Shown here: positions 8,544 through 52,814 of the stretch, piece after piece
Numbering within the stretch: the stretch's first letter is position 1
Layout: each line of letters starts with the position of its first letter
Assembly: GCF_056746865.1 (NCBI RefSeq)
Contig: NZ_CM163382.1
DNA: 64,000 bases
Reading direction: 5' to 3' (one strand)
Notes under the pieces: generated by a model
Told to the model about the DNA's origin: nothing
Seen by the model: the letters and a program-made list of their open reading frames with translations, nothing else
Databases searched by the model: none
Translations under genes and position numbers: made by a program

Positions 8544-8566
8544 TTAGAACTTCACCCGAATCATAA

Positions 8567-8746: not shown

Positions 8747-8781
8747 TAATATAACGATCAACAATAATATTTATTATAATT

Positions 8782-36356: not shown

Positions 36357-37406
36357 ATGGAAACCCCTCAACCCGATAAAACGGGCATGCACATTCTGCT
36401 CAAGCTGGCCTCGCTGGTAGTGATCCTCGCGGGCATTCACGCAGCGGCAGATATCATTGTGCAGCTGTTACTGGCGCTGTTTTTTGCCATCGTCCTCAAC
36501 CCGCTCGTCACCTGGTTTATTCGTCGGGGAGTACAACGCCCCGTTGCCATTACGATTGTGGTGGTGGTGATGCTGATCGCACTAACTGCGCTGGTCGGCG
36601 TACTGGCGGCATCGTTTAACGAATTTATCTCTATGCTGCCGAAGTTTAATAAGGAGCTAACGCGCAAACTTTTTAAATTGCAGGAGATGTTGCCTTTTCT
36701 TAATTTGCATATGTCACCGGAGCGAATGCTGCAGCGGATGGACTCGGAAAAAGTGGTTACCTTCACCACGGCGCTAATGACCGGGCTTTCCGGGGCAATG
36801 GCGAGCGTGCTTTTGCTGGTGATGACCGTAGTTTTCATGCTGTTTGAAGTGCGCCACGTCCCTTACAAAATGCGTTTTGCGTTGAATAATCCACAGATTC
36901 ACATCGCCGGACTACACCGCGCCTTAAAAGGTGTTTCGCATTATCTGGCGTTAAAGACGCTGCTAAGTTTATGGACAGGCGTAATCGTCTGGCTGGGGCT
37001 GGCGCTAATGGGCGTACAGTTTGCGCTGATGTGGGCAGTACTGGCGTTTTTGCTCAACTACGTGCCCAATATCGGCGCGGTAATTTCCGCCGTACCGCCA
37101 ATGATTCAGGTGCTGCTGTTTAATGGCGTTTACGAATGTATTCTGGTCGGCGCATTGTTTTTAGTGGTCCATATGGTCATCGGCAATATTTTAGAACCAC
37201 GGATGATGGGCCATCGCCTGGGGATGTCCACCATGGTGGTATTTCTTTCATTGTTAATTTGGGGATGGCTGCTCGGCCCGGTAGGGATGCTACTTTCGGT
37301 ACCATTAACCAGCGTGTGTAAAATCTGGATGGAAACCACCAAAGGCGGTAGCAAACTGGCGATTTTACTGGGACCGGGCAGACCGAAAAGTCGATTACCG
37401 GGTTAA
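36357..37406 (+). CDS. yhhT: AI-2E-family (PerM-like) transporter
   Basis: Internal start METPQPDKTGMHILLKLASLVV gives 349 aa. Confidence 0.85.
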   Translation: METPQPDKTGMHILLKLASLVVILAGIHAAADIIVQLLLALFFAIVLNPLVTWFIRRGVQRPVAITIVVVVMLIALTALVGVLAASFNEFISMLPKFNKELTRKLFKLQEMLPFLNLHMSPERMLQRMDSEKVVTFTTALMTGLSGAMASVLLLVMTVVFMLFEVRHVPYKMRFALNNPQIHIAGLHRALKGVSHYLALKTLLSLWTGVIVWLGLALMGVQFALMWAVLAFLLNYVPNIGAVISAVPPMIQVLLFNGVYECILVGALFLVVHMVIGNILEPRMMGHRLGMSTMVVFLSLLIWGWLLGPVGMLLSVPLTSVCKIWMETTKGGSKLAILLGPGRPKSRLPG

Positions 37407-37425
37407 TAGCACCTCCTGAGCAGGC

Positions 37426-37462
37426 AATGGCCACCGTTTATCTAACAGTGGCCATTTGATTT
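37426..37462 (+). terminator. Candidate terminator after yhhT
   Basis: AATGGCCACCGTTTATCTAACAGTGGCCATT forms a perfect 9-bp stem, followed by TGATTTG. Confidence 0.45.
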
Positions 37463-37785
37463 GAGGAAATGAAGAAACATTATTCAGACAATTAATTTAT
37501 AAAAACCATTCCTTAAGTCAAATATATATAAACGCCGAATAGCGATTAAATCCTTCTCAAAGAATGCACTGATAACATTGTGTTATTTTTATTGCCTCAT
37601 TTTTCTCACTCACTTATAGTTGGTCCCCGCTGGCAGTAATTTAGTCATTTCAGAAATTTTTACTCTGATGTGCACTTACTGACTTATCTCACAAGTAATT
37701 TTTTCGCTAAATAAAGAATAGTGATGCCAGCAATTACAGTTAAATCTTGCTTTACTCGTAAAAACAATACTTTAATGGGGTTCTA

Positions 37786-38175
37786 ATGAGACATTACATG
37801 AAATGGTTTGCGGCTATTGCTGTTGTGGGTGCTTTAGCGGGTTGCGCGCGTACTGCGCCAATTGATCAGGTTCACTCAACCGTCAGCGCTGGTCATACCC
37901 AGGAACAAGTGAAAAAAGCGATTCTGAAAGCTGGCGTTGAACGCAAATGGATTATGTCCGAAGCCGGACAAGGCGTAATTAAAGCACGTCAACAGTCACG
38001 CGATCATTCAGCCGAAATTCGCATTAACTACACGGCATCCAGCTACGATATCAATTATGAAAATAGCCAGAACCTACAAGCGTCAGGCGGACAAATTCAT
38101 AAAAACTACAATCGCTGGGTCCGCAATCTCGACAAAGATATTCAACTGAATTTGTCAGCGGGCGCAGATTTATAA
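37786..38175 (+). CDS. Small lipoprotein, first gene of the accessory cluster
   Basis: 129-aa ORF with a lipobox (LAGC); follows ~330 bp of AT-rich sequence and may correspond to the first ape gene (position only). Confidence 0.55.
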   Translation: MRHYMKWFAAIAVVGALAGCARTAPIDQVHSTVSAGHTQEQVKKAILKAGVERKWIMSEAGQGVIKARQQSRDHSAEIRINYTASSYDINYENSQNLQASGGQIHKNYNRWVRNLDKDIQLNLSAGADL

Positions 38176-38234
38176 TTCTTCCTAAAGTCGGGCCGCTGCG
38201 GTCCGATAATAATTTAATTCCCTCTTAACAGGTT

Positions 38235-39302
38235 GTGCCCAACATGTACGAACAGGATTCTCTTAGCGCACTGGATGCGATTACCGAAGCTCAACGCATT
38301 GCCTTTGCCCCTATGCTTTTTCAAACAGCACTCTGCCTACGTAATGCGGGTGTACTTTCATATCTGGATCGGCAAGGCAAACATGGCGCAACGCTGGCTG
38401 ATATCACCGAACATAGCCATATCAACGAATATGCGGCCAGCGTTCTGTTAGATATGGGCTTAAGCGGGCGAATTATTACCTGTAAAGAGGGAATGTATTA
38501 CCTGGCGAAAATCGGTCATTACCTCCTGCATGACACTATGACTCGCGTGAATATGGATTTCACCCAGGATGTCTGTTACCAGGGGCTCTTCTTCCTCGCC
38601 GATTCACTCAATGAAGGAAAACCGTCCGGGTTAAAAGTATTTGGCGACTGGTCGACGATATATCCGGCACTTTCACAATTACCAGACGCCGCTCGTGAAA
38701 GCTGGTTTGCGTTTGATCATTACTATTCAGATGGCGCATTTAACGCCGCACTGCCTTATGTATTCGCCAACAACCCCACAACATTGTACGATGTAGGCGG
38801 CAATACGGGTAAGTGGGCTTTGCGTTGCTGCAAATACAATGAAAACATAGCCGTGACGTTATTAGATCTGCCACAACAAATCGTACTAGCGAAAGAAAAT
38901 ATCGCGAATGCAGGTTTTTCTGATCGCATAGATTTCCATGCGGTGGATATGCTAAGCGATGCCCCATTACCGGGCGAGGCTGATATCTGGTGGATGAGCC
39001 AATTTTTAGACTGTTTTTCACCCGAACAAATAATTAGCATACTCAGCAAAATCGCCAGCGTAATGAAGCCTGGCGCAAAAGTTTGCATCATGGAGTTGTT
39101 CTGGGATGCGCAGCGGTTTGAAGCAGCATCATTTAGCCTGAACGCGTCCTCACTTTATTTTACCTGCATGGCAAACGGTAACAGCCGTTTCTATAGTGCA
39201 GAGAAATTTTACGACTATCTGAATAAAGCAGGATTCCAGGTAGCAGAGCGCCACGATAATTTAGGCGTTGGGCATACACTTTTGATATGCCAAAAGAAAT
39301 AA
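38235..39302 (+). CDS. Class I SAM-dependent methyltransferase (ApeB-like)
   Basis: 355-aa ORF with a glycine-rich SAM-binding motif (LYDVGGNTGKWA) and an acidic-loop motif (LLDLPQ). Confidence 0.75.
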   Translation: MPNMYEQDSLSALDAITEAQRIAFAPMLFQTALCLRNAGVLSYLDRQGKHGATLADITEHSHINEYAASVLLDMGLSGRIITCKEGMYYLAKIGHYLLHDTMTRVNMDFTQDVCYQGLFFLADSLNEGKPSGLKVFGDWSTIYPALSQLPDAARESWFAFDHYYSDGAFNAALPYVFANNPTTLYDVGGNTGKWALRCCKYNENIAVTLLDLPQQIVLAKENIANAGFSDRIDFHAVDMLSDAPLPGEADIWWMSQFLDCFSPEQIISILSKIASVMKPGAKVCIMELFWDAQRFEAASFSLNASSLYFTCMANGNSRFYSAEKFYDYLNKAGFQVAERHDNLGVGHTLLICQKK

Positions 39303-39342
39303 TCGTCACTTAATAATTTTGGTTTACCGCGGGCGCGCGTTG

Positions 39343-40065
39343 ATGAAATTTACATTAAATATTACCGACTGGCAGGCACTGGCGCCTGGACTTAGCGAAG
39401 CGCAGCAATGGCAAGCATGGTCGCGCCAGCCGTGGGCGATTGACCCTGCCGCGCCGTTGGCAAAATTAAGTGAACTGCCAATGATGACCGCCCGCCGCCT
39501 TAGTTCAGGCAGCAAACTGGCTGTTGAATGCGGTCTGGCAATGCTACGCCGCCATCAGCCAGACGCCGTTTTGTATACCAGTCGTCATGGCGAACTGGAG
39601 CGCAATTACCGCATTGTTCATGCACTGGCAACCGAACAGGCGCTTTCTCCGACCGACTTCGCGCTCTCCGTACACAACTCTTCCGTGGGTAACCTGACCA
39701 TTGCGGCCAAACAGCCGATAGTTTCGTCATCGCTTTCTGCTGGTCGCGACACTTTCCAGCAAGGTTTGTGTGAAGTGCTTAGCCTGTTACAAGCGGGATA
39801 CCAGCGCGTGTTGATGGTCGATTTTGACGGTTTTCTGCCCGAGTTTTATCACCCACAACTGCCATCAGAAATGCCGACCTGGCCGTACGCCGTCGCGCTG
39901 GTGATTGAATCTGGCGATGACTGGCAATGTGAAACGCAGTCAGCCATTGCGGGCAATGAAACATCACTGCCGCAAAGCATGTTGTTTTTACAGCATTATT
40001 TACAAAATGCAGACGCATTTTCACTGCCTGGCGAGCGCGTGCAATGGCGCTGGAGCCGCAGATGA
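39343..40065 (+). CDS. Ketosynthase-like protein lacking the active-site Cys (chain-length-factor-like, ApeC-like)
   Basis: About 240 aa resembling the N-terminal half of a KS; the position equivalent to the catalytic Cys reads HNSS rather than CSSS. Confidence 0.65.
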   Translation: MKFTLNITDWQALAPGLSEAQQWQAWSRQPWAIDPAAPLAKLSELPMMTARRLSSGSKLAVECGLAMLRRHQPDAVLYTSRHGELERNYRIVHALATEQALSPTDFALSVHNSSVGNLTIAAKQPIVSSSLSAGRDTFQQGLCEVLSLLQAGYQRVLMVDFDGFLPEFYHPQLPSEMPTWPYAVALVIESGDDWQCETQSAIAGNETSLPQSMLFLQHYLQNADAFSLPGERVQWRWSRR

Positions 40066-40883
40066 GTAAGCTGATGTCACGTCTGGAGTGGACCTGGCGA
40101 CTGGTCATGACCGGGTTATGTTTTGCCCTGTTTGGTCTCGGCGGCCTGCTGCTTTCTGTCGTGTGGTTTAACATATTGTTAGTTTTGGTGTGGGATACTT
40201 CCCGCCGCCGTCGTTTGGCGCGTCGCAGCATTGCCGCCAGTTTTCGCCTGTTTTTAACTGTCGCGAAAGGGCTTGGCGTGCTGGATTATCGTATTGATGG
40301 CGCTGAAATTTTACGTCAGGAACGCGGTTGCCTCGTCGTAGCCAATCATCCCACGCTGATCGATTACGTGCTGCTGGCGTCAGTCATGCCAGAAACTGAC
40401 TGCCTGGTGAAAAGCGCGCTGTTAAAAAATCCTTTTCTTGGCGGCGTCGTGCGGGCGGCAGATTATTTAATCAACAGCGAAGCTGAAACCCTGTTACCCC
40501 GCTGCCAACAGCGACTGGCACAGGGTGACACTATCCTGATTTTCCCCGAAGGCACGCGAACGAAGCCCGGTGAAAAAATGACGCTGCAGCGCGGGGCGGC
40601 GAATATTGCCGTGCGCTGTGCCAGCGATTTACGCATCGTGACGATCGGCTGTAGCGAGCATCTGCTGGATAAACAAAGTAAATGGTATGACGTTCCACCT
40701 GACCGGCCGTTTTTTACGGTTGAAGTCCATGGTCGGGTTGAAATCAATAAATTTTACGATGCAACTTCACAAGAACCGGCGCTGGCAGCAAGGCAGTTAA
40801 ACCGGCATCTTTTGCTTCTATTACAACAAGGTTGTTTACCTCTCTCAGGAATAAATAATGCAAGCGCTTTATCTGGAAATTAA
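40062..40883 (+). CDS. Lysophospholipid (PlsC-family) acyltransferase (ApeD-like)
   Basis: HX4D acyltransferase motif (VANHPTLIDY) plus FPEGTR; N-terminal TM helix; ATGA overlap with the upstream gene. Confidence 0.75.
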   Translation: MSKLMSRLEWTWRLVMTGLCFALFGLGGLLLSVVWFNILLVLVWDTSRRRRLARRSIAASFRLFLTVAKGLGVLDYRIDGAEILRQERGCLVVANHPTLIDYVLLASVMPETDCLVKSALLKNPFLGGVVRAADYLINSEAETLLPRCQQRLAQGDTILIFPEGTRTKPGEKMTLQRGAANIAVRCASDLRIVTIGCSEHLLDKQSKWYDVPPDRPFFTVEVHGRVEINKFYDATSQEPALAARQLNRHLLLLLQQGCLPLSGINNASALSGN

Positions 40884-41115
40884 AAACCTCATCATCAGCA
40901 CCCTCAATCTGGACGAGTTGACTCCTGATGATATCGAGACCGATGCGCCGCTGTTCGGCGACGGTTTAGGACTGGATTCCATCGATGCCCTGGAACTGGG
41001 ACTGGCAGTAAAAAATGAGTACGGCGTGGTGCTCTCAGCCGAAAGCGAAGAGATGCGTCAGCACTTTTTCTCCGTCGCCACTCTGGCCTCTTTCATTGCT
41101 GCGCAACGCGCCTGA
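40858..41115 (+). CDS. Acyl carrier protein 1
   Basis: 85-aa acidic protein with the phosphopantetheine-attachment motif GLGLDSIDALEL. Confidence 0.85.
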   Translation: MQALYLEIKNLIISTLNLDELTPDDIETDAPLFGDGLGLDSIDALELGLAVKNEYGVVLSAESEEMRQHFFSVATLASFIAAQRA

Positions 41116-41126
41116 GGAAAGCCATC

Positions 41127-41378
41127 ATGACAGAACAACAAACCGTCTATCAGGAAGTCTCAGCCCTGCTGGTTAAGCTGTTTGAAATCGATCCGCAGGA
41201 CATCAAACCTGAAGCGCGCCTGTACGAAGATCTGGAACTGGACAGCATCGACGCCGTTGACATGATTGTGCACCTGCAAAAGAAAACCGGTAAGAAAATC
41301 AAGCCGGAAGAGTTTAAAGCAGTGCGCACAGTTCAGGATGTCGTAGAGGCTGTAGAACGCCTGCTACAAGAAGCCTGA
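41127..41378 (+). CDS. Acyl carrier protein 2
   Basis: 83-aa acidic protein with the motif DLELDSIDAVDM. Confidence 0.85.
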   Translation: MTEQQTVYQEVSALLVKLFEIDPQDIKPEARLYEDLELDSIDAVDMIVHLQKKTGKKIKPEEFKAVRTVQDVVEAVERLLQEA

Positions 41379-41382
41379 TCTG

Positions 41383-41964
41383 ATGTCGGGCATTCGCTCG
41401 CTACCGATGATTAAGCTGCTGACTGGATTATTGCTGCTCGCCTGGCCGTTTGTGATTTGGTTTGGCCTGGCGCATAACGGCCTGCACTGGTTGTTGCCGC
41501 TAATAGCGTTGCTGCTATTGTTGCGCCTGCGCCAGACCCGTCGCCGGGCGGGGCCGCTACAAGCCGTCACACAAATCGTCGCTGTCGTGGGCATCGCATT
41601 GTGTGTCGCCAGCTTTCTGTTGAAAACGCACCAGCTACTGCTGTTTTACCCGGTAGTGGTTAACGCGATCATGCTGGCGGTTTTTGGCGGTTCGCTGTGG
41701 TCGACAATGCCGATAGTTGAGCGGCTGGCACGTTTGCAGGAGCCAGACCTCCCGGAAAAGGGCGTGCGCTATACCCGCCGTGTCACGCAAATCTGGTGCG
41801 GCTTTTTCATCATTAACGGCGGAATTGCCCTCTTTACCGCGCTTTATGGCGATATGTCGTTATGGACCGCCTGGAACGGCATGATTGCTTATTTTTTGAT
41901 GGGAACGTTAATGGCAGGTGAATGGCTGGTGCGCCGTCAGGTGATAAAAAGAGATCGCTCATGA
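41383..41964 (+). CDS. Integral membrane protein of unknown function (ApeG-like)
   Basis: 193-aa ORF with about 4 hydrophobic helices. Confidence 0.6.
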   Translation: MSGIRSLPMIKLLTGLLLLAWPFVIWFGLAHNGLHWLLPLIALLLLLRLRQTRRRAGPLQAVTQIVAVVGIALCVASFLLKTHQLLLFYPVVVNAIMLAVFGGSLWSTMPIVERLARLQEPDLPEKGVRYTRRVTQIWCGFFIINGGIALFTALYGDMSLWTAWNGMIAYFLMGTLMAGEWLVRRQVIKRDRS

Positions 41965-43322
41965 AGCAGACCTTACCGCTTGCACGCTGGCTGACTGCGC
42001 CACGCCCTGATGACACGCCCATTGCGTGGCTGGACGAAAGCTCGTGGACACTGGGCGATTTGCGTCACGATGTCGCGCAACTTATCTGCCGCTTGCAGCA
42101 ACAGCCGGGTGAACGCTGGGCGCTGTGCTTTGAGAACAGTTATTTGTTTATCGTTGCCCTGCTTGCCACGCTACACGCCGGAAAAACGCCGGTGCTTCCG
42201 GGGCATAACCGTGTCATCCAGCTTAATGAACAACGTGAACTGTTCGATGGTGTACTTAGCGACAGCGATCTTAACTGGCAAGGTTCATTGCTGTTGGTAG
42301 CAAGTTCCCCACAAGTCGCGACACAATCATTCACCTTTGCCGCTATAGCGCCAGACGCTTATATCGAGCTATTTACCTCCGGTTCTACGGGGCAGCCAAA
42401 GCGGGTAATTAAACCTGTTCATTTGCTGGACCGTGAAGCAGAACTGCTGGCTGAACGATTAGGCGCACGTCTTGCCGGATGTCGTGTCGTCGGTTCCGTA
42501 TTGCCGCAGCATCTGTACGGCCTGACTTTTCGCGTTTTCCTGCCAATGGCGCTGGGATTACCGCTGCACGCCGCCATGCTCTGGTATGTCGAACAGTTTG
42601 CCGCATTGAGTCACCAGCATCGCTATATCTTCATCAGCAGCCCGGCATTTTTGAAACGGCTGGATACCCAGCTTTCTCCGCCGCCCGTTCAGGTGCTTCT
42701 CTCTGCTGGCGGTGAGCTGCCGTGGCAGGACGTAAAACACACCGCGAGCTGGCTGCGCGTCTGGCCTGATGAAATCTACGGCAGCACGGAAACCGGCGTC
42801 ATTGCCTGGCGTTACCGCGAACAAGAGCAACGCCGCTGGCTGCCCTTTCCAGGTATGCACTTCCAGGCCGAAGGTGAAGCATTTCGTCTCTTTTCACCGC
42901 TGATAGCGGAAGATAACGGCCTGTTACTCGATGATCTCTTGCAGTTTAGCCAGGACGGTCAGTTCCATCTGATGGGGCGTCGTGGGCGCATCGTTAAGAT
43001 TGAAGAAAAACGTATTTCTCTGCAGGAAGTAGAACAACGTCTGCTGGCGCTGGACGGCATTCGCGAGGCGGCGGCAGTTCCCGTTACGCGCGGCGGGCGT
43101 CAGAGCATCGGCGTTTTGCTGGTGCTGGATGACGAAGCTCGCCTGCAATGGCAGAACGGCGGCGGGCATAGCCAGGAAATGACCTGGCGGCGATTACTGC
43201 GCCCGACGCTGGAGCCAGTTGCTATTCCGCGTTACTGGCGCGTTATTGATGAAATGCCAGTAAACAGTATGAACAAGCGTGTCTATGCGCAATTACAGGA
43301 GTTATTTCATGAAGCCCCATGA
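41961..43322 (+). CDS. Acyl-CoA/acyl-ACP synthetase (adenylate-forming ligase, ApeH-like)
   Basis: AMP-binding motif YIELFTSGSTGQPKRV; ATG at 41961 overlaps the upstream stop. Confidence 0.8.
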   Translation: MKQTLPLARWLTAPRPDDTPIAWLDESSWTLGDLRHDVAQLICRLQQQPGERWALCFENSYLFIVALLATLHAGKTPVLPGHNRVIQLNEQRELFDGVLSDSDLNWQGSLLLVASSPQVATQSFTFAAIAPDAYIELFTSGSTGQPKRVIKPVHLLDREAELLAERLGARLAGCRVVGSVLPQHLYGLTFRVFLPMALGLPLHAAMLWYVEQFAALSHQHRYIFISSPAFLKRLDTQLSPPPVQVLLSAGGELPWQDVKHTASWLRVWPDEIYGSTETGVIAWRYREQEQRRWLPFPGMHFQAEGEAFRLFSPLIAEDNGLLLDDLLQFSQDGQFHLMGRRGRIVKIEEKRISLQEVEQRLLALDGIREAAAVPVTRGGRQSIGVLLVLDDEARLQWQNGGGHSQEMTWRRLLRPTLEPVAIPRYWRVIDEMPVNSMNKRVYAQLQELFHEAP

Positions 43323-43662
43323 AATCGAGCGCCATCAGGCACAAGCGAATCACCTTGAGATTGTTTTGCATCTCAGGGCAGATCTGTTCTGGTTTCGCGG
43401 CCATTTTGCCGTGCAGCCGTTACTCCCAGGAGTTGCACAAATCGACTGGGCGATGAGCTACGCGCTCACTCTGCTCGCGCCTGGCTGGCGTTTTCACTCT
43501 ATTCAGAACATCAAATTCCAGTCCCCGTTGCTGCCGGACAACCGCGTCACGCTCACGCTTAACTGGCAGGAAGAACGCCAGATTCTGAGCTTTAGCTATC
43601 AGCGTCACGACGGTGACGCCCGCCACACCGCCAGTAGCGGGAAGATCCGCCTATGTCGGTAA
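43309..43662 (+). CDS. Hotdog-fold 3-hydroxyacyl-ACP dehydratase (FabZ/FabA-like)
   Basis: About 117 aa with FRGHFAVQPLLPGVAQID, a typical dehydratase motif. Confidence 0.7.
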   Translation: MKPHEIERHQAQANHLEIVLHLRADLFWFRGHFAVQPLLPGVAQIDWAMSYALTLLAPGWRFHSIQNIKFQSPLLPDNRVTLTLNWQEERQILSFSYQRHDGDARHTASSGKIRLCR

Positions 43663-45329
43663 ACTTTTCTCCCTGCGTGTTGATCCCCTGCTACAACCAC
43701 GGCGCGATGATGCCGGGCGTGCTGGCGCGTCTTAAGCCATTTAATCTGCCCTGTATTGTAGTGGATGACGGCAGCGATGCCGCCACGCAACAGCAACTGG
43801 ATAATCTGGTTGCCGAACAGCCTGGCGTGACCTTAATTCGCCTGGCAGAAAACGCAGGCAAAGGCGCGGCAGTGATGCGTGGCTTACAGGCAGCGGCAGA
43901 CGCGGGCTTCAGCCATGCGGTGCAGGTGGATGCTGACGGTCAGCACGCGATTGAAGACATCCCTAAACTGCTGGCACTCGCTGAACAGCAGCCTGCGGCG
44001 CTGATCTCCGGCCAGCCGATTTACGATGACTCCATCCCCCGCTCACGGCTGTACGGGCGCTGGGTCACCCACGTGTGGGTATGGATCGAAACGCTCTCCC
44101 TGCAACTGAAAGACAGTATGTGCGGCTTTCGCGTTTATCCGGTTGCGCCAACGCTGCAACTGGCAAAATACGCTACCATCGGCAAGCGGATGGATTTTGA
44201 CACCGAAGTGATGGTGCGCCTCTACTGGCAGGGAAATACCAGTTATTTCGTGCCGACCCGCGTCACCTATCCGCTGGACGGGCTTTCGCATTTTGATGCC
44301 CTGAAAGATAACGTCCGCATCTCGCTGATGCACACACGTCTGTTTTTCGGCATGTTGCCGCGTATTCCTTCACTGCTGATGCGCCACTCTTCCAGCCACT
44401 GGGCGCGGCAGAGCGAAGTGAAAGGGTTATGGGGAATGCGCCTGATGCTGCTGGTCTGGCGTCTGCTGGGAAGAACTGCGTTTACCGCGCTGCTTTACCC
44501 GGTGGTGGGCGTCTACTGGCTCACCGCTGCTCGTGCACGTAAAGCGTCGCAAGACTGGCTCGCCCGTGTGCGCCAACAACAACCACAGGCAGCAAAACTC
44601 AACAGCTATCAGCATTTTCTACGTTTCGGCAACGCCATGCTCGACAAAATCGCCAGCTGGCGCGGCGAGCTGCAACTCGGGCGTGATGTGCTGTTTGCAC
44701 CAGGCGCAGAAGCGGCACTTAACGTCAGCGATCCGCGCGGCAAATTGCTGCTGGCCTCGCATCTTGGCGATGTGGAAGTGTGCCGGGCGCTGGCAAAAAT
44801 TCAGGGCTACAAAACCATTAACGCGCTGGTGTTTAGCGAAAACGCCCAACGCTTTAAACAGATAATGCAGGAGATGGCCCCGCAGGCAGGCATCAACCTG
44901 CTCCCGGTAACAGATATCGGCCCGGAAACCGCCATCCTGCTGAAAGAGAAGCTGGATAACGGCGAATGGGTGGCGATTGTCGGTGACCGCATCGCCGTCA
45001 ACCCGCAACGCGGCGGCGACTGGCGCGTCTGCTGGAGTCCGTTTATGGGCCAGCCTGCGCCTTTCCCACAGGGGCCGTTTATTCTTGCGTCTATTTTGCG
45101 CTGCCCGGTGAATCTGATTTTCGCCCTGCGCCAGCACGGCAAGCTGCATATTCACTGCGAAACCTTTGCCGACCCGCTGCTGTTGCCGCGTGGCGAACGC
45201 CAGCAGGCGCTGCAAAACGCTATCGATCATTACGCCGCGCGTCTGGAACATTACGCGCTCCAGTCGCCCCTCGACTGGTTTAATTTTTTCGATTTCTGGC
45301 AACTGCCGGAAGTCCAGGACAAGGAGTAA
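43653..45329 (+). CDS. Bifunctional protein: N-terminal GT2 glycosyltransferase fused to a C-terminal LpxL/HtrB-like lipid acyltransferase domain (ApeJ-like)
   Basis: 558-aa ORF; N-terminus CVLIPCYNHG...VVDDGSDA (GT-A fold); C-terminal half has LASHLGDVEV and IVGDR motifs resembling lipid A late acyltransferases. Confidence 0.7.
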   Translation: MSVNFSPCVLIPCYNHGAMMPGVLARLKPFNLPCIVVDDGSDAATQQQLDNLVAEQPGVTLIRLAENAGKGAAVMRGLQAAADAGFSHAVQVDADGQHAIEDIPKLLALAEQQPAALISGQPIYDDSIPRSRLYGRWVTHVWVWIETLSLQLKDSMCGFRVYPVAPTLQLAKYATIGKRMDFDTEVMVRLYWQGNTSYFVPTRVTYPLDGLSHFDALKDNVRISLMHTRLFFGMLPRIPSLLMRHSSSHWARQSEVKGLWGMRLMLLVWRLLGRTAFTALLYPVVGVYWLTAARARKASQDWLARVRQQQPQAAKLNSYQHFLRFGNAMLDKIASWRGELQLGRDVLFAPGAEAALNVSDPRGKLLLASHLGDVEVCRALAKIQGYKTINALVFSENAQRFKQIMQEMAPQAGINLLPVTDIGPETAILLKEKLDNGEWVAIVGDRIAVNPQRGGDWRVCWSPFMGQPAPFPQGPFILASILRCPVNLIFALRQHGKLHIHCETFADPLLLPRGERQQALQNAIDHYAARLEHYALQSPLDWFNFFDFWQLPEVQDKE

Positions 45330-45332
45330 AGG

Positions 45333-45755
45333 GTGCTTAACGATCCCCGATTTACCGCTGAAGTCGAGCTGACCATTCCCTTTCACGACGTCGATATGAT
45401 GGGCGTGGCCTGGCACGGTAACTATTTTCGCTACTTTGAAGTGGCCCGCGAGGCGCTGCTCAACCAGTTCAATTACGGCTATCGGCAGATGAAAGAGTCC
45501 GGTTATTTGTGGCCAGTGGTCGATGCGCGGGTGAAATATCGCCACGCCCTCACCTTTGAGCAACGCATCCGCGTGCGTGCACATATCGAAGAGTTCGAAA
45601 ACCGTCTGCGGATTGGCTATCAGATTTTCGATGCCGAAACGGGCAAACGCGCCACCACCGGATACACCATTCAGGTCGCGGTCGACGAGCAAAGCCGCGA
45701 ACTGTGCTTTGTCAGCCCCGATATTTTGTTTGAACGCATGGGAGTCAAACCATGA
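45333..45755 (+). CDS. 4HBT/YbgC-like hotdog thioesterase
   Basis: 140-aa ORF with a GTG start and the motif FHDVDMMGVAWHGNYFRYFE. Confidence 0.75.
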   Translation: MLNDPRFTAEVELTIPFHDVDMMGVAWHGNYFRYFEVAREALLNQFNYGYRQMKESGYLWPVVDARVKYRHALTFEQRIRVRAHIEEFENRLRIGYQIFDAETGKRATTGYTIQVAVDEQSRELCFVSPDILFERMGVKP

Positions 45756-46357
45756 AATTTTTACCACTGCTGGCGCTGCTGATTAGCCCGTTTGTGAGCG
45801 CCCTGAACCTGGACGATCTTCAGCAACGCTTTACCGAACAGCCGGTGATCCGCGCTCATTTCGATCAAACCCGGACGATTAAAGATCTGCCGCAGCCGCT
45901 ACGATCTCAGGGCCAGATGTTGATCGCCCGCGACCAGGGGCTGTTGTGGGATCAAACCTCACCATTTCCCATGCAACTATTGCTGGACGATAAACGCATG
46001 GTGCAGGTGATCAACGGTCAGCCGCCGCAAATCATCACGGCAGAAAATAACCCGCAGATGTTCCAGTTTAACCACCTGCTGCGCGCGCTGTTCCAGGCCG
46101 ATCGCAAAGTGCTGGAACAAAATTTCCGCGTCGAATTTGCTGACAAAGGCGAAGGCCGCTGGACACTGCGCCTGACGCCGACCACCACGCCGCTGGATAA
46201 AATTTTCAACACCATCGATCTCGCCGGGCAAACCTATCTGGAGAGCATTCAGCTTAATGATAAACAGGGCGATCGCACCGATATCGCTCTTACCCAACAT
46301 CAACTGACGCCAGCGCAACTGACCGATGACGAACGCCAACGTTTTGCCGCCCAGTAA
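45752..46357 (+). CDS. LolA-like outer-membrane lipoprotein carrier protein
   Basis: 201-aa ORF with a signal peptide (MKFLPLLALLISPFVSA); LolA-like length and composition. Confidence 0.65.
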   Translation: MKFLPLLALLISPFVSALNLDDLQQRFTEQPVIRAHFDQTRTIKDLPQPLRSQGQMLIARDQGLLWDQTSPFPMQLLLDDKRMVQVINGQPPQIITAENNPQMFQFNHLLRALFQADRKVLEQNFRVEFADKGEGRWTLRLTPTTTPLDKIFNTIDLAGQTYLESIQLNDKQGDRTDIALTQHQLTPAQLTDDERQRFAAQ

Positions 46358-48644
46358 ACGCCCGGCGCTGTTATGGGGGATCGTCTGCCTGGTCATGGCG
46401 GCGGCGTTGCTGATCCTGTTGCCGCAATCACGACTGAACAGTAGCGTGCTGGCTATGTTACCCAAACAGGCGATGGGCGATATTCCTCCAGCGCTGAATG
46501 ACGGCTTTATGCAGCGTCTGGACCGCCAACTGGTGTGGCTGGTCAGCCCCGGTAAAGAGGCTAATCCCAGGGTGGCTCAGGAGTGGCTGACGCTGCTGCA
46601 AAAATCCGCTGCGCTCGGCGACGTTAAAGGGCCAATGGATGCCGCCAGCCAGCAGGCGTGGGGAGCGTTTTTCTGGCAGCACCGCAACGGCCTGGTTGAC
46701 CCCGACACCCGCGCGCGCCTGCAAAACGGCGGCGAAGCGCAGGCGCAGTGGATCCTCTCCCAGCTTTATTCTGCGTTCTCCGGGGTAAGCGGTAAGGAGC
46801 TGCAAAACGATCCGCTGATGTTAATGCGTGGCTCGCAGCTGGCGATGGCGAAAAACGGCCAGCGTTTGCGGCTGATGGACGGCTGGCTGGTGACGCAGGA
46901 TCCCCAGGGCAACTACTGGTATCTGCTGCACGGCGAACTGGCGGGATCGTCGTTTGATATGCAGCAAACCCACCAGCTCATCACGACCCTGAATACGCTG
47001 GAAAAGGATCTGAAAACGCGTTACCCGCAGGCGCAGTTGCTCTCGCGCGGCACGGTGTTTTACAGCGATTACGCCAGCCAACAGGCGAAGCAGGATATCT
47101 CCAACCTGGGCGTGGCAACGCTGCTGGGGGTGATATTACTGATTGTGGCGGTGTTCCGCTCTTTACGCCCATTGCTGCTTTGCGTGATTTCCATCGGCAT
47201 CGGCGCGCTGGCGGGAACGGTCGCCACCTTGTTGATTTTCGGCGAATTACACCTGATGACGCTGGTGATGAGCATGAGCGTTATCGGCATTTCCGCTGAC
47301 TACACGCTCTATTACCTCACCGAGCGGATGGTGCACGGCAATGACGTTTCGCCGTGGCAAAGCCTGGCGAAAGTGCGCAATGCCCTGCTGCTGGCGCTGC
47401 TCACCACCGTGGCGGCGTATCTGATTATGATGCTCGCCCCCTTCCCCGGCATTCGCCAGATGGCGATTTTTGCCGCCGTCGGGTTGAGCGCCTCCTGTCT
47501 GACCGTCCTGTTCTGGCATCCGTGGCTGTGCCGTGGCCTGCCGGTGCGTCCGGTTCCGGCGATGGCGCTGATGCTGCGCTGGCTGGCTGCGTGGCGGCGT
47601 AATAAAAAACTGTCGCTGGGTCTGCCCGTCGCGCTGGCGCTGTTTTCGCTGGCGGGGATGTCAATGCTGCGCGTCGACGACGATATCTCGCAGTTACAGG
47701 CGCTACCGCAGCATATTCTGGCCCAGGAGAAAGCCATTACCGCCCTGACCGGACAAAGCGTCGATCAAAAATGGTTTGTAGTTTACGGCGACTCTCCACA
47801 GCAAACATTGCGGCGGCTGGAGAAATTTACCGCCTCGCTGGAGAATGCGAAAAAAGAGGGGCTTATCAGCAACTACCGCACCATTCCGCTGAACTCCCTG
47901 GCGCGGCAGGAGGAAGATTTACATCTGCTGAAAACGGCTGCCCCGACAGTAACAAAAGCACTGCAAAATGCCGGGCTGGCGGCAGTGAATCCGGATCTCA
48001 ACGCCATGCCAGTGAAGGTCGATGAATGGCTGGCAAGCCCCGCCAGTGAAGGCTGGCGTCTGCTGTGGCTGACGCTGAAAAACGGCGAAAGCGGCGTACT
48101 GGTGCCGGTTGAAGGGGTTAAAAGTAGCGCGTTGTTGCAGGAAATCGCCAGCGATTACCCTGGCGGCATTGCCTGGGTTGATCGCAAAAGCACCTTTGAT
48201 GAGTTGTTCGCACTTTACCGCTACGTCTTAACCGGTTTGTTGCTGGTGGCGCTGGCGGTGATTGCCTGCGGCGCAGTGGCCCGCCTCGGCTGGCGCAAAG
48301 GGCTTATCAGCCTGGTGCCTTCGGTACTTTCGCTGGGCTGCGGTCTGGCAGTGCTGGCGATGAGCGGGCAGGCGGTGAATCTCTTTTCGCTACTGGCGCT
48401 GGTGCTGGTGCTTGGCATCGGCATCAATTACACGCTGTTTTTCAGTAATCCGCGCGGTACACCGTTAACTTCCCTACTGGCGATCACGCTGGCAATGCTC
48501 ACCACCTTGCTGGCGCTGGGAATGCTGGTATTCAGCGCCACCCAGGCCATCAGCAGTTTTGGCATTGTGCTGGTGAGCGGTATTTTCACCGCCTTCCTGC
48601 TTTCGCCGCTGGCTATGCCCGATAAAAAGAGAACAAAAAAATGA
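46326..48644 (+). CDS. MMPL/RND-superfamily exporter (start codon uncertain)
   Basis: 772-aa ORF with two blocks of about 6 TM helices separated by soluble domains. Confidence 0.75.
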   Translation: MTNANVLPPSKRPALLWGIVCLVMAAALLILLPQSRLNSSVLAMLPKQAMGDIPPALNDGFMQRLDRQLVWLVSPGKEANPRVAQEWLTLLQKSAALGDVKGPMDAASQQAWGAFFWQHRNGLVDPDTRARLQNGGEAQAQWILSQLYSAFSGVSGKELQNDPLMLMRGSQLAMAKNGQRLRLMDGWLVTQDPQGNYWYLLHGELAGSSFDMQQTHQLITTLNTLEKDLKTRYPQAQLLSRGTVFYSDYASQQAKQDISNLGVATLLGVILLIVAVFRSLRPLLLCVISIGIGALAGTVATLLIFGELHLMTLVMSMSVIGISADYTLYYLTERMVHGNDVSPWQSLAKVRNALLLALLTTVAAYLIMMLAPFPGIRQMAIFAAVGLSASCLTVLFWHPWLCRGLPVRPVPAMALMLRWLAAWRRNKKLSLGLPVALALFSLAGMSMLRVDDDISQLQALPQHILAQEKAITALTGQSVDQKWFVVYGDSPQQTLRRLEKFTASLENAKKEGLISNYRTIPLNSLARQEEDLHLLKTAAPTVTKALQNAGLAAVNPDLNAMPVKVDEWLASPASEGWRLLWLTLKNGESGVLVPVEGVKSSALLQEIASDYPGGIAWVDRKSTFDELFALYRYVLTGLLLVALAVIACGAVARLGWRKGLISLVPSVLSLGCGLAVLAMSGQAVNLFSLLALVLVLGIGINYTLFFSNPRGTPLTSLLAITLAMLTTLLALGMLVFSATQAISSFGIVLVSGIFTAFLLSPLAMPDKKRTKK

Positions 48645-49225
48645 TCAAACCCACATTCTGGCGAGCGTTCGCCCTGACCGCTACGCTTATCCTCACCGGC
48701 TGTAGCCACTCGCAACCGGAACAGGAAGGTCGCCCACAGGCGTGGCTGCAACCTGGCACGCGCATCACGCTGCCGGCACCAGGGATTTCGCCCGCCGTTA
48801 ATTCCCAGCAACTATTGAGCGGCAGCTTCAACGGCAAAACCCAGTCTCTGCTAGTGATGCTTAACGCCGACGACCAGAAAATCACCCTTGCCGGGCTGTC
48901 GTCGGTCGGCATTCGTCTGTTTCTGGTGACCTACGATGCGCAAGGGCTACGCGCCGAGCAATCCATCGTCGTCCCACAGTTGCCGCCCGCAAGTCAGGTG
49001 CTGGCTGACGTGATGCTTAGCCACTGGCCGATTAGCGCCTGGCAACCGCAACTCCCCGCTGGATGGACGCTTCGCGACAACGGTGACAAACGCGAACTGC
49101 GTAACGCCAGCGGCAAACTGGTCACGGAAATCACCTATCTGAATCGCCAGGGAAAACGCGTGCCAATCAGCATTGAACAGCATGTCTTTAAATACCACAT
49201 CACCATTCAATATTTAGGTGACTGA
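48641..49225 (+). CDS. Lipoprotein (DUF3261-like, possibly LolB-like)
   Basis: 194-aa ORF with a lipobox (LTGC). Confidence 0.65.
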   Translation: MIKPTFWRAFALTATLILTGCSHSQPEQEGRPQAWLQPGTRITLPAPGISPAVNSQQLLSGSFNGKTQSLLVMLNADDQKITLAGLSSVGIRLFLVTYDAQGLRAEQSIVVPQLPPASQVLADVMLSHWPISAWQPQLPAGWTLRDNGDKRELRNASGKLVTEITYLNRQGKRVPISIEQHVFKYHITIQYLGD

Positions 49226-50396
49226 TATGATTTACATTTCCGCCGTCGGCATGATCAACGCCCTGGGAAATAACCTTGACGATATCGCAGCCAACCTGAC
49301 TCGCGGTGTCGCTCCCGGCATGCGCCCGCGCGCAGGCTGGTTGCAGGGGCATCCGCAGGCGGTCCTGGCTGGCGTGGATGGCGAGCTTCCGGTTATCCCG
49401 GAAAAATTCGCTGCGCACCGCTCGCGCAACAATCAGATCCTGCTGGCGGCGCTGGCGCAGATCCAGCCGCAGGTTGATGACGCTATTGCGAAATATGGCC
49501 GCGAGCGCATCGCGATTGTGCTTGGCACCAGCACCTCCGGCCTGCATGAAGGCGACACGCACGTTAACCTGCGCACCCACGGGCAGCCGAGCACCACGTG
49601 GCACTATGCACAACAAGAGCTCGGCGATCCGTCGCGTTTTCTCAGCCACTGGCTGGCGCTCGACGGCCCAGCTTATACCCTTTCAACCGCCTGCTCCTCC
49701 AGTGCCAGAGCGATGATCAGCGGGCGCAGGCTTATCGAGGCGGGGCTGGTCGATGCCGCCATTGTGGGTGGTGCAGACACCCTGAGCCGAATGCCGATTA
49801 ACGGTTTTCACAGCCTCGAATCGCTCTCGCCAACCTTATGTCAGCCGTTTGGTCGTGACCGCGCGGGCATCACCATTGGCGAAGGTGCGGGGCTGATGCT
49901 GTTGACCCGCGAACCGCAGCCCATCGCCTTGCTGGGCGTCGGTGAATCGAGCGACGCTTATCATATTTCGGCCCCGCATCCACAGGGCGAAGGCGCAATT
50001 CGCGCCATTAACCAGGCGCTGGCTGATGCGCAGCTTACGCCGGATGAGGTGGGCTATATCAACCTGCACGGCACCGCCACACAACTCAACGACCAGATTG
50101 AATCGATGGTGGTAAACGCCCTGTTTGGCGAACGCGTACCGTGCAGCTCCACCAAACATTTGACCGGACACACGCTGGGCGCAGCGGGCATTACCGAAGC
50201 GGCAATCAGTATGTTGATCTTAGAGCGTGATTTACCGCTGCCCGCTCAGGACTTCAGCCTGTCGCCGCGCGATCCCACGCTGCCACCGTGCGGCATTATC
50301 GAACAACCACAGCCGCTGGCACGTCCGGTGATCCTGTCCAATTCCTTCGCCTTTGGCGGCAATAACGCCAGCATTCTGCTCGGGAGGGTTTCGTGA
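49218..50396 (+). CDS. Beta-ketoacyl-ACP synthase (KS, ApeO-like)
   Basis: Active-site Cys (LSTACSSSARAM), HGTAT, and NSFAFGGNNASIL. Confidence 0.85.
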   Translation: MTDMIYISAVGMINALGNNLDDIAANLTRGVAPGMRPRAGWLQGHPQAVLAGVDGELPVIPEKFAAHRSRNNQILLAALAQIQPQVDDAIAKYGRERIAIVLGTSTSGLHEGDTHVNLRTHGQPSTTWHYAQQELGDPSRFLSHWLALDGPAYTLSTACSSSARAMISGRRLIEAGLVDAAIVGGADTLSRMPINGFHSLESLSPTLCQPFGRDRAGITIGEGAGLMLLTREPQPIALLGVGESSDAYHISAPHPQGEGAIRAINQALADAQLTPDEVGYINLHGTATQLNDQIESMVVNALFGERVPCSSTKHLTGHTLGAAGITEAAISMLILERDLPLPAQDFSLSPRDPTLPPCGIIEQPQPLARPVILSNSFAFGGNNASILLGRVS

Positions 50397-50857
50397 GCCA
50401 CTATTTATCCCCCGGCGCTTATCTGCCCCACGACGCGCCCATGTTACTGCTGGAAGAAGTGGTGAGCGTCAGCGATGACAGCGCGGTGTGCCGTGTAACG
50501 GTCTCGCCCAGTGGCGTACTGGCACCGTTTCTCGACCCGGACGGCAATCTCCCTGGCTGGTTTGCCCTTGAATTGATGGCGCAAACCGTCGGCGTCTGGT
50601 CTGGCTGGCATCGCCACCAGCAGGGCAAAAACAGTATTGAGTTAGGGATGGTACTGGGCGCACGTGAATTGCTTTGCGCCGCTGGCATTCTGCCCGCAGG
50701 CCAGACGCTGACCATTACCGTCAAACTCCTGATGCAAGACGATCGCTTCGGCAGTTTTGAGTGCAGCATCAACAACGGCACGGCAACGGGCCGCATTAAC
50801 ACCTTCCAGCCGACCGCGGAAGAACTTACCACCCTGTTTCAACAAGGAGCGTCCTGA
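50393..50857 (+). CDS. Hotdog-fold dehydratase (FabA/FabZ-like, ApeP-like)
   Basis: 154-aa ORF overlapping the neighbouring genes; hotdog-like length and motif spacing. Confidence 0.6.
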   Translation: MSHYLSPGAYLPHDAPMLLLEEVVSVSDDSAVCRVTVSPSGVLAPFLDPDGNLPGWFALELMAQTVGVWSGWHRHQQGKNSIELGMVLGARELLCAAGILPAGQTLTITVKLLMQDDRFGSFECSINNGTATGRINTFQPTAEELTTLFQQGAS

Positions 50858-51588
50858 TGAGTCGTTCAGTTCTGGTTACTGGTGCCAGCAAAGGCATTGG
50901 TCGCGCCATCGCCTGCCAACTGGCGGCAGACGGCTTTAATATTGGCGTTCACTATCACCGTGACGCCACAGGCGCTCAGGAAACGCTAAATGCCATTGTC
51001 GCCAACGGGGGTAACGGGCGTTTGCTCAGTTTCGACGTCGCAAACCGCGAACAGTGTCGGGAAGTGCTGGAGCACGAAATCGCGCAAAACGGTGCCTGGT
51101 ACGGCGTGGTTAGTAACGCCGGGATCGCCCGCGATGCCGCTTTTCCGGCTTTAAGCGATGACGACTGGGATGCGGTGATCCACACCAATCTCGACAGTTT
51201 CTACAACGTTATTCAGCCGTGCATTATGCCGATGATCGGCACACGCCAGGGTGGACGCATCATCACGCTGTCCTCGGTTTCCGGCGTGATGGGCAATCGC
51301 GGACAGGTGAACTACAGCGCTGCCAAAGCCGGAATTATCGGCGCAACAAAAGCACTGGCTATCGAACTCGCGAAGCGCAAAATCACCGTCAACTGCATCG
51401 CGCCGGGGCTTATTGATACCGGGATGATCGAAATGGAAGAGAGCGCCCTGAAAGAGGCAATGTCGATGATCCCCATGAAACGCATGGGCCAGGCGGAAGA
51501 AGTTGCCGGGCTTGCCAGCTATTTAATGTCTGATATTGCGGGTTACGTCACCCGCCAGGTTATTTCCATCAACGGAGGGATGTTATGA
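50857..51588 (+). CDS. 3-oxoacyl-ACP reductase (SDR, FabG-like)
   Basis: VLVTGASKGIGRAIA Rossmann motif and YSAAKAG catalytic motif. Confidence 0.88.
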   Translation: MSRSVLVTGASKGIGRAIACQLAADGFNIGVHYHRDATGAQETLNAIVANGGNGRLLSFDVANREQCREVLEHEIAQNGAWYGVVSNAGIARDAAFPALSDDDWDAVIHTNLDSFYNVIQPCIMPMIGTRQGGRIITLSSVSGVMGNRGQVNYSAAKAGIIGATKALAIELAKRKITVNCIAPGLIDTGMIEMEESALKEAMSMIPMKRMGQAEEVAGLASYLMSDIAGYVTRQVISINGGML

Positions 51589-52814
51589 CACGTCGCGTAG
51601 TGATTACAGGAATGGGCGGCGTGACTGCCTTTGGTGAAAACTGGCAGGACGTTTCCGCGCGTCTGCTGGCGTATGAGAATGCAGTGCGCAAAATGCCGGA
51701 GTGGCAGGTCTACGATGGTCTGCACACCCTGCTTGGCGCGCCTGTTGATGATTTCACGCTACCGGAGCACTACACCCGCAAGCGTATCCGTGCGATGGGC
51801 CGCGTGTCGCAAATGTCGACCCGTGCCAGCGAGCTGGCGTTAGAGCAGGCAGGATTGATTGGCGATCCGATATTAACCAGCGGCGAAACGGGCATTGCGT
51901 ACGGTTCATCGACCGGCAGTACCGGTCCGGTGAGCGAATTTGCCACCATGCTGACGGAAAAGCACACCAATAACATCACCGGCACCACCTATGTACAGAT
52001 GATGCCGCACACCACCGCCGTTAATACCGGTCTGTTTTTCGGCCTGCGCGGGCGGGTGATCCCGACCTCCAGCGCCTGTACCTCCGGCAGCCAGGCGATC
52101 GGTTATGCGTGGGAAGCCATTCGCCACGGTTATCAAACGGTGATGGTTGCTGGTGGTGCCGAAGAGTTATGCCCTTCAGAAGCAGCGGTATTTGATACAC
52201 TTTTCGCCACCAGCCAGCACAATGATGCGCCGAAAACCACACCTTCACCGTTCGATGAAAACCGCGACGGGCTGGTGATTGGTGAAGGCGCAGGTACGCT
52301 GATTCTTGAAGAACTGGAGCACGCCAAAGCGCGCGGCGCGACCATTTACGGTGAAATCGTCGGCTTTGCGACTAACTGCGACGCGGCACATATTACCCAG
52401 CCTCAGCGTGAGACCATGCAATATTGTATGGAAAAATCGTTAAAAATCGCCGGGTTAAGTGCAAGTGATATCGGCTATATTTCGGCGCATGGTACGGCGA
52501 CCGATCGTGGTGATATGGCAGAAAGTCTGGCGACAGCAACCATTTACGGTGATAATGTGCCGCTCTCCTCGCTGAAAAGTTATTTTGGTCATACGCTTGG
52601 TGCCTGTGGCGCGCTCGAAGCCTGGATGAGTCTGCAAATGATGCGCGAAGGTTGGTTTGCGCCTACGCTAAACCTGAATAAACCAGACCCGAACTGTGGC
52701 GCGCTGGATTACATCATGCATGAAGCCCGCAAGGTTGATTGTGAGTTTTTGCAGAGTAACAACTTTGCCTTTGGCGGCATTAATACATCCATCATCATTA
52801 AACGTTGGCCCTGA
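51585..52814 (+). CDS. Beta-ketoacyl-ACP synthase (KS, ApeR-like)
   Basis: Active-site Cys (SSACTSGSQAIG), HGTAT and GHTLGACG. Confidence 0.88.
   Translation: MTRRVVITGMGGVTAFGENWQDVSARLLAYENAVRKMPEWQVYDGLHTLLGAPVDDFTLPEHYTRKRIRAMGRVSQMSTRASELALEQAGLIGDPILTSGETGIAYGSSTGSTGPVSEFATMLTEKHTNNITGTTYVQMMPHTTAVNTGLFFGLRGRVIPTSSACTSGSQAIGYAWEAIRHGYQTVMVAGGAEELCPSEAAVFDTLFATSQHNDAPKTTPSPFDENRDGLVIGEGAGTLILEELEHAKARGATIYGEIVGFATNCDAAHITQPQRETMQYCMEKSLKIAGLSASDIGYISAHGTATDRGDMAESLATATIYGDNVPLSSLKSYFGHTLGACGALEAWMSLQMMREGWFAPTLNLNKPDPNCGALDYIMHEARKVDCEFLQSNNFAFGGINTSIIIKRWP

Follow-up and report, generated by a model that had tools for sequence, protein, structure and literature searches.

An AT-rich intergenic region separates yhhT from an accessory gene cluster

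The window, by which we mean the whole stretch of 64,000 nucleotides analyzed here (one strand of contig NZ_CM163382.1), covers an E. coli region in which yhhS and yhhT are followed by a 15-kb accessory cluster, acpT, and nikABCDE-nikR. The left flank of the cluster is formed by the core gene yhhT (36357–37406, + strand), which is annotated in the K-12 and O157 records as an AI-2E family transporter of 349 aa, ends with the stop codon TAA at 37404–37406, and occurs in 5425 of the 5426 E. coli genomes surveyed. Between yhhT and the first gene of the cluster lies an AT-rich, ORF-free intergenic region (37407–37785, + strand), the existence of which was confirmed by G+C content, ORF scan, and genome survey. 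Its G+C content is 0.338, compared to 0.528 for the whole window, and 2.8% of the 379-nt segments within the 64-kb window show values as low as this. A scan of every frame revealed no ORF longer than 27 aa between 37407 and 37785, and an Rfam search at E ≤ 1 returned zero matches within the same interval; a single snoRNA hit in 37200–38000 lies inside yhhT and was put down to chance. The distance from the end of a hairpin at 37456 to the first ATG of the cluster at 37786 is 329 nt, in agreement with an earlier note on this DNA, which had described about 330 bp of AT-rich DNA devoid of ORFs between these two features. The end of the region at 37785 is likewise correct, as the first gene has its conserved start at ATG 37786. 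This spacer is the sole long noncoding stretch ahead of the cluster genes.

Elsewhere in the window, further stretches of low G+C content (minimum 28%) occur in the yhhX-ggt region (4900–9000), which also harbors yhhY, yrhA, yrhB, and an orphan tssD/Hcp gene. An IS2-like element (IS3 family) is located at about 6420–7755, and the whole 5.5 kb was matched in only 1 of the 5426 genomes.

The hairpin 3′ of yhhT (37426–37456, + strand), identified as an inverted repeat and by folding, consists of two 13-nt arms (37426–37438 and 37444–37456) with one mismatch and a 5-nt loop, the stem-loop being G+C-rich. Folding of 37420–37466 yielded −17.7 kcal/mol (z = −3.3), a stability that was reached by 2 of 200 shuffled sequences. 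The stem is followed by TTTGATTTG, and a strict terminator scan did not call the hairpin, since the rule of 5 T in 8 failed with the full stem and a canonical T-tract is lacking; we therefore consider it a plausible but not canonical intrinsic terminator. The hairpin is kept in Escherichia sp. E1V33, judging from 2 substitutions that create one G-U pair and repair the mismatch, which amounts to a compensating change (dG −22.6, z −6.6). It probably ends yhhT transcription as a weak, island-specific terminator. Other cluster-bearing genera with the lipoprotein gene carry a small yhhT terminator hairpin at the start of the spacer (CTACC…GGTAG TTTT), which differs from the Escherichia hairpin.

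The cluster is of the aryl-polyene type

The first cluster gene (37786–38175, + strand, ORF prediction) encodes a small lipoprotein of 129 aa with the lipobox LAGC, for which no Pfam or NCBIfam family was found. In O157 and other strains, RefSeq places the start of this gene at the second ATG (37798, 125 aa). However, ATG 37786 and its Shine-Dalgarno sequence are kept across genera, while the second Met is replaced by Ile or Val in other species, which indicates that the true start is 37786. At the opposite end, the last cluster gene, KS2 (51585–52814, + strand; NCBIfam NF006587, 777 bits), encodes a beta-ketoacyl-ACP synthase, and its stop codon lies one base before the ATG of acpT (TGA-T-ATG). 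The latter gene (52816–53403, + strand; NCBIfam NF007676, 395 bits) encodes a 4′-phosphopantetheinyl transferase and forms the right flank.

According to RefSeq and Pfam annotation of orthologous loci, the cluster codes for a methyltransferase, a chain-length factor, an acyltransferase, 2 ACPs, an AMP-ligase, a glycosyltransferase, and a thioesterase, as well as LolA-like, MMPL, and DUF3261 proteins, 2 ketosynthases, a ketoreductase, and dehydratases of the ApeI-like (PF22818) and ApeP-like (PF22817) families. The match of the methyltransferase to the FlxJ family reaches 474 bits, which is under the 560-bit cut-off. The gene set that is characteristic of aryl polyene (APE) clusters, i.e., dehydratases, a pair of chain-length factor and ketosynthase, 2 ACPs, and LolA-like and MMPL export components, is present, and, judged by this gene set, the cluster is an aryl-polyene-type fatty-acid/polyketide cluster. 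Production of an aryl polyene pigment has been demonstrated only for the cluster of strain CFT073 (PMC8253772). A passage of the same publication, citing De Lay & Cronan 2006, describes AcpT as modifying the 2 carrier proteins of the island, and acpT is functionally tied to the cluster.

Both ends of the variable segment can be placed to the base

A base-by-base comparison of the window with the K-12 record, together with megablast, placed the left breakpoint at 37402/37403, where homology to K-12-type genomes ends. In yhhT, the final Gly codon has a different third base and the stop codon differs as well (GGT TAA in the window, GGA TGA in K-12), with 2 differences in the four bases following 37402, and among the megablast matches listed, those from cluster-less genomes all end at query position 1003, corresponding to 37402 of the window. 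Homology to K-12 resumes at 52796, so that the right breakpoint (52795/52796) lies inside the last cluster gene and 20 bp 5′ of the acpT ATG at 52816; K-12-type genomes thereby retain 19 nt of KS2 (52796–52814, + strand; CATTAAACGTTGGCCCTGA). The segment that is missing from K-12-type genomes (37403–52795, + strand) comprises 15,393 bp and consists of the spacer and the 19 cluster genes minus the final 19 nt of the last one, which makes it the counterpart of O-island 138. In its place, K-12-type genomes carry 38 nt (ATGAGGCGACAAGTGATACGATACGCACTTTCATTTTC), for which the best ungapped match within the window covers 22 of 39 positions.

As the left breakpoint falls on the stop codon of yhhT, both the hairpin and the entire AT-rich stretch are island DNA that is absent from K-12. 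The earlier note had taken the AT-rich stretch behind the yhhT terminator hairpin as one endpoint of an insertion/deletion. The stretch does represent the left end of the variable segment, but the break itself is found at the stop codon rather than inside AT-rich DNA, and the hairpin, although present at 37426–37456, is part of what K-12 lacks. The expectation that the other endpoint would be close to the start of acpT was accurate, whereas short direct repeats, which the note had proposed to look for at the breakpoints, were not found, with the 6-mer TTAATA being the longest word common to both ends. No repeat or microhomology of at least 7 nt is shared; among random 100-nt pairs, 45% share a 7-mer. 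Thus, the edge of a strain-variable segment was recognized correctly, but it is not a clean boundary, as 38 nt are substituted in K-12, and the direction of the event is that of a deletion (see below).

Within the 64-kb window, ARAGORN detected neither tRNA nor tmRNA genes. Integrase, transposase, or recombinase genes are absent from the edges of the segment, and the 19 genes between yhhT and acpT are all biosynthetic, export-related, or of unknown function.

In order to determine the distribution of both states, 5426 complete E. coli genomes were searched. The K-12 junction was found in 4856 of them (about 90%), in every case with at least 98.3% identity over a 361-nt probe across the junction, while 569 contained the left junction with the cluster and a single genome showed neither state. 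A low-stringency search with the 383-nt spacer identified it once in each of the 569 cluster carriers (97.7–100% identity), which include O157:H7 and O145:H28 strains, and nowhere outside of them. The spacer is identical to that of the window in strains such as 118UI and shares 99% identity with PCN033 and 98.2% with O157 strains. The reading of the stretch as a boundary, which the earlier note had made dependent on K-12 not containing the same roughly 330 bp, therefore stands, with 0 of 4856 K-12-type genomes and 569 of 569 carriers having this DNA.

IS elements were encountered at the locus sporadically and in single strains only. An IS1 copy is inserted between the yhhT stop and the hairpin in NZ_AP045800.1 (corresponding to 37418–37426 of the window), where the 9 bp GAGCAGGCA would be the duplicated target; the lipoprotein gene (inside 37786–38175) is interrupted by another IS1 in NZ_CM176495.1, a strain that is otherwise 100% identical to the window; and an IS5 is located in the methyltransferase/chain-length-factor region of NZ_OZ546993.1.

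The spacer contains a candidate promoter and a conserved leader

As the cluster genes are all encoded on the + strand and mostly overlap, abut, or are closely spaced, the spacer ahead of them is the candidate location of a cluster promoter. The best candidate for a sigma-70 promoter (37592–37620, + strand) consists of TTGCCT (37592–37597) and TATAGT (37615–37620) separated by 17 nt, which would place the transcription start near 37627 and result in a leader of about 160 nt. This was the only promoter-like element on the + strand in a consensus scan; its score of 9/12 is reached with no lower frequency in shuffled sequence. It aligns, however, with TTGATA-17-TATACT, a conserved element located about 200 nt 5′ of the start codon in Citrobacter and Klebsiella. 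Furthermore, the 65 nt that hold the candidate (37575–37639) are identical in Escherichia sp. E1V33, in which the remainder of the spacer shows about 10% divergence; by a rough estimate, an invariant run of this length would arise by chance with p near 0.06.

Among cluster-bearing species with the lipoprotein gene, the spacer measures 290–710 nt and has a G+C content of 30–42% (mostly 30–38%). Across genera, the spacer as a whole is not alignable outside of conserved blocks. When Escherichia, Citrobacter, and Klebsiella were aligned as a subset, 4 such blocks emerged on the + strand: the promoter-like block (TTATTTTTATTGCCT-N17-TATAGT in the window, TTATTTCCATTGATA-N17-TATACT in the others), GCTAAATAAA at 37706–37715, a leader block CGTAAAAACAATAC at 37757–37770, and the ribosome-binding site with the ATG. 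The part from the leader block through the Shine-Dalgarno sequence GGGG (37777–37780) up to the start codon (37757–37785) comprises the most conserved columns across genera. The promoter role that had been proposed for the stretch is thus backed circumstantially by a conserved promoter-like block, although the consensus match is no better than chance; we consider it probable that the spacer holds the promoter of the cluster and infer its position from this block.

A CRP-like palindrome ACTGACTTATCTCACA (37678–37693, + strand; 8 of 10 consensus bases) is a weak lead, which we did not retain as a CRP site, given its 2 mismatches and the 17 such matches in the window compared to 22 expected by chance. 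A perfect TGTGA-N6-TCACA was observed in Citrobacter sp. MGH106 at about the same relative position, though in different alignment columns.

H-NS favors AT-rich DNA. From its composition, the spacer is a plausible target of H-NS, as had been supposed earlier; a literature search on aryl polyenes and H-NS returned no binding or hns-mutant data on the yhhT-acpT locus. In a microarray study of EDL933, 7 island genes rose together 2- to 6-fold in an rpoS mutant in stationary phase, and island genes gave mid-range signals (log2 3–10) in LB (PMC2907692). These data fit a single active unit of the sigma-70 type.

The K-12 state is a deletion scar

For a survey across species, YhhT was used to scan one genome per species, resulting in 80 loci that were classified by tblastn with the proteins of the window. 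Among these 80 species, about 33, belonging to more than 10 enterobacterial genera, have the cluster directly 3′ of yhhT; the carriers include Citrobacter, Klebsiella, Lelliottia, Leclercia, Enterobacter, Silvania, Huaxiibacter, Atlantibacter, Kosakonia, Pluralibacter, and Escherichia sp. E1V33. In E. albertii, E. whittamii, the Citrobacter freundii complex, another Citrobacter group, Salmonella enterica subsp. arizonae and diarizonae, and the Enterobacter cloacae complex, acpT comes directly after yhhT, with no cluster in between.

These empty sites contain remnants of KS2. They comprise at least 19 nt in Escherichia, Salmonella, and Citrobacter, with K-12 retaining the gene's final 19 nt, and about 35–110 nt, with different breakpoints, in Enterobacter cloacae (about 110 nt) and an Enterobacter MAG. 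When the C-terminus of KS2 (…NNFAFGGINTSIIIKRWP) is aligned with a ketosynthase of known structure, PDB 4ewg, the match extends to residue 407 of 409, and the same C-terminus is encoded by the second cluster copy found in E. coli, which does not adjoin acpT. The terminal codons are therefore native ketosynthase sequence, and their retention in K-12 identifies the remnant as a deletion scar. Together with the lack of mobile-element hallmarks, the gene remnants show that the polymorphism is a deletion in K-12-type lineages rather than an insertion, with the carrier state being ancestral. These comparisons establish where the two breakpoints lie, that spacer and cluster strictly co-occur, and in which direction the event went.

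The empty-site spacers of Escherichia, Salmonella, and both Citrobacter groups are 54–57 nt long and can be aligned over their whole length, and the 57-nt scar is homologous among E. coli, E. albertii, E. whittamii, S. enterica arizonae and diarizonae, and 2 Citrobacter groups (e.g., 17 of 22 bases match between TGAGGCGACAAGTGATACGATA of K-12 and TGAGGCGACAGATGCTACAATC of Salmonella). Judging from this homology, the scar is older than E. coli, while the Enterobacter junctions are other, independent ones. When yhhT sequences are placed in a neighbor-joining tree, carriers do not separate from non-carriers but are interspersed with them in Escherichia, Citrobacter, Enterobacter, Klebsiella, and Kosakonia. 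The same scar in Escherichia, Salmonella, and Citrobacter amid interleaved carriers implies that the history of the locus in E. coli may include re-acquisition of the cluster by homologous recombination instead of mere retention. In its flanks, the carrier O157 differs from K-12 by 1.1–1.5% and from the window by 2.2–2.3%. Within the cluster, the divergence between the window and O157 is 3.4%, compared to 2.2% in the flanks, which points to a long residence of the cluster in E. coli. The divergence from O157 is about 1.5% over 37403–39400 (spacer, lipoprotein, and methyltransferase genes) and about 4% over 39400–52795, suggesting a recombination tract that would end near 39400.

Several origins were considered for the 38-nt filler. 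A derivation from elsewhere in the window was rejected, given the best ungapped match of 22/39 and a best gapped match at an unrelated place. The same applies to the motif GCGACAA..TGTACGAT, which is conserved ahead of the chain-length-factor gene in those clusters of Enterobacter and Silvania that lack the first 2 genes: the alignment score of the filler was no better than against unrelated sequence. In shuffle tests against the 3′ end of KS2 from cluster-bearing Citrobacter or from Enterobacter remnants, the fillers of the Citrobacter and Salmonella scars gave p = 0.009–0.09, while the K-12 version was not significant (p = 0.09–0.6). These values lend weak support to the simplest idea, a filler that would be a decayed further part of the KS2 3′ end, which we regard as likely.

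The K-12 yhhT-acpT spacer (K-12 record 3504–3561) contains neither promoter-like nor terminator-like sites and does not fold into a stable structure (z = +1.5); in K-12-type strains, acpT is therefore probably read through from yhhT. This spacer contains TGATACGAT, which resembles an extended −10 element, and TGCTACAAT is found in the Salmonella spacer.

Additional rearrangements were observed at individual loci. Leclercia sp. 29361 has neither the lipoprotein gene nor the spacer, its methyltransferase gene starting 8 nt after yhhT. The clusters of Enterobacter mori, Enterobacter genomosp. O, and Silvania are devoid of the lipoprotein and methyltransferase genes, and in E. asburiae, an internal deletion joins the region of the first ACP gene to acpT. 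Escherichia sp. MOD1-EC7003 (locus 11690–11915) has about 112 extra bases between acpT and nikA in comparison to other Escherichia loci.

A second copy of the cluster lacks the AT-rich spacer

In 255 further E. coli genomes, a second copy of the cluster was found next to cdiBA, with about 7 genomes having both copies. In NZ_CP128912.1, where this copy is located at 852029–866247 (see also locus 842500–848500), the homology extends exactly from the ATG of the lipoprotein gene to the stop codon of KS2, without acpT, and the identity to the cluster described here rises from 89% at the 5′ end to 96% at the 3′ end. The 515-nt spacer upstream of the second copy (37% G+C) shows no similarity to the spacer at yhhT beyond the bases touching the ATG. 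Therefore, the AT-rich spacer is DNA of the yhhT locus and not part of a portable cassette. We infer that the second copy corresponds to the CFT073 cluster. Its thioesterase and last ketosynthase share their accessions with those of the O157 island (WP_000930891.1 and WP_000198472.1), which suggests gene conversion between the 2 cluster loci.

The stretch is probably an ancestral spacer that was deleted along with the cluster

Taken together, we consider it very likely that the stretch is the ancestral spacer and probable promoter region of the cluster, which was deleted in K-12-type E. coli. According to this explanation, the order yhhT, spacer, cluster, and acpT would be the old syntenic state in Enterobacteriaceae, from which an ancestor of K-12-type E. 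coli would have lost everything from the yhhT stop to within 20–60 nt of the end of the last gene. The spacer would have been taken along by this deletion, leaving acpT directly behind yhhT. In carriers, the stretch would serve as the yhhT-cluster intergenic region, comprising the probable hairpin end of yhhT, about 330 nt with the probable promoter, and the ribosome-binding site of the first gene.

The opposite direction, in which a horizontally acquired island was inserted into a yhhT-acpT spacer like that of K-12, with the AT-rich stretch forming the end of the foreign insert, appears highly improbable to us. While the stretch is AT-rich and strain-variable, as the ends of islands often are, the cluster is missing from about 90% of E. 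coli genomes, and the second copy next to cdiBA in 255 genomes looks mobile, the locus shows no tRNA, integrase, or flanking direct repeats, and the cluster is found 3′ of yhhT in many genera. Furthermore, empty sites keep between 19 and about 110 nt of KS2, in codons that are native to the ketosynthase, and the second copy shares nothing with the spacer, so that the latter is local rather than cassette DNA. It is also rather improbable, though less so, that the spacer has no promoter of its own, with the cluster being read through from yhhT and the AT-richness reflecting neutral drift in noncoding DNA. This would agree with a hairpin that is not a canonical terminator, a promoter match no better than chance, a spacer that is mostly unalignable between genera, and the Leclercia sp. 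29361 arrangement, in which the methyltransferase gene follows yhhT after 8 nt without a spacer. However, the spacer retains its length and composition from genus to genus, the promoter-like block is conserved with identical spacing in 3 genera, the 65-nt stretch is invariant, and the hairpin is maintained with a compensating change.

A more serious, albeit still doubtful, alternative is that the deletion is far older than E. coli and that the carrier allele re-entered or moved among Escherichia by homologous recombination via yhhT and acpT/nik. The homology of the 57-nt scar across Escherichia, Salmonella, and 2 Citrobacter groups and the interleaving of carriers and non-carriers on the yhhT tree in 5 genera are in line with such an exchange, as are the O157 flanks, which are nearer to K-12 than to the window and thus decoupled from the indel, and the first 2 kb of the island, which, at 1.5% compared to about 4% for the rest, resemble a recombination tract. 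On the other hand, yhhT and acpT of carriers have no mosaic or foreign signature (about 2% from K-12), the divergence of the cluster between the 2 carrier lineages exceeds that of the flanks, as would be the case under long vertical residence, and the sample outside of E. coli consists of one genome per species. It is conceivable, although we would not favor it at present, that the scar goes back to one deletion predating the split of Escherichia, Salmonella, and Citrobacter, with both alleles having persisted or having been swapped repeatedly via the flanks in several genera. If true, this would constitute a trans-genus presence/absence polymorphism of an aryl-polyene cluster and would point to long-term balancing or fluctuating selection on the pigment.

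The main value of this analysis lies in annotation: the exact ends of a well-known variable segment are fixed, the start codon of the first cluster gene is corrected, and a promoter candidate (37592–37620) is provided for a cluster whose regulation appears unstudied. Moreover, what has been named an island is ancestral, with K-12 representing the deletion form. The scar that is common to Escherichia, Salmonella, and Citrobacter while carriers persist would, if confirmed, offer a suitable case for studying how a costly envelope-lipid pathway stays polymorphic over very long periods.

Comparison with known systems

The island has been described before, as has the orphaning of acpT. De Lay and Cronan (in Molecular Microbiology 61:232, 2006) are said to have described a rearrangement that orphaned AcpT of K-12. 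This work on the "orphaned" AcpT is cited in passages of PMC8253772 and PMC4103896. The island of O157:H7 at this locus has been named O-island 138 (PMC3893438, PMC2907692), which corresponds to Z4849–Z4867 in E. coli O157:H7 EDL933. Judging from the alignment, the variable segment of the window is the equivalent of O-island 138: it occupies the same locus from yhhT to acpT, with the same gene order and the same island length (identical offset at both ends), and in both cases the spacer, which is 98.2% identical, adjoins yhhT and is absent from K-12. The window differs in that it comes from a non-O157 lineage, being 3.4% diverged from O157 inside the cluster.

APE clusters provide a second point of reference, e.g., APE_Ec of uropathogenic E. 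coli CFT073 (c1186–c1204; PMC8253772), the gene set of which is the same as that of the cluster described here. The resemblance to H-NS-silenced AT-rich promoters consists in the 66% A+T over about 380 nt 5′ of an accessory operon, whereas the body of the cluster is, in contrast to typical xenogeneic H-NS targets, G+C-rich (about 55–60%). With classical tRNA-linked genomic or pathogenicity islands, the locus shares a strain-variable accessory block with an AT-rich edge, but it has no tRNA, integrase, insertion-sequence border, or direct repeats. Unlike such islands, the cluster is syntenic across genera, and its variable state arose by deletion.
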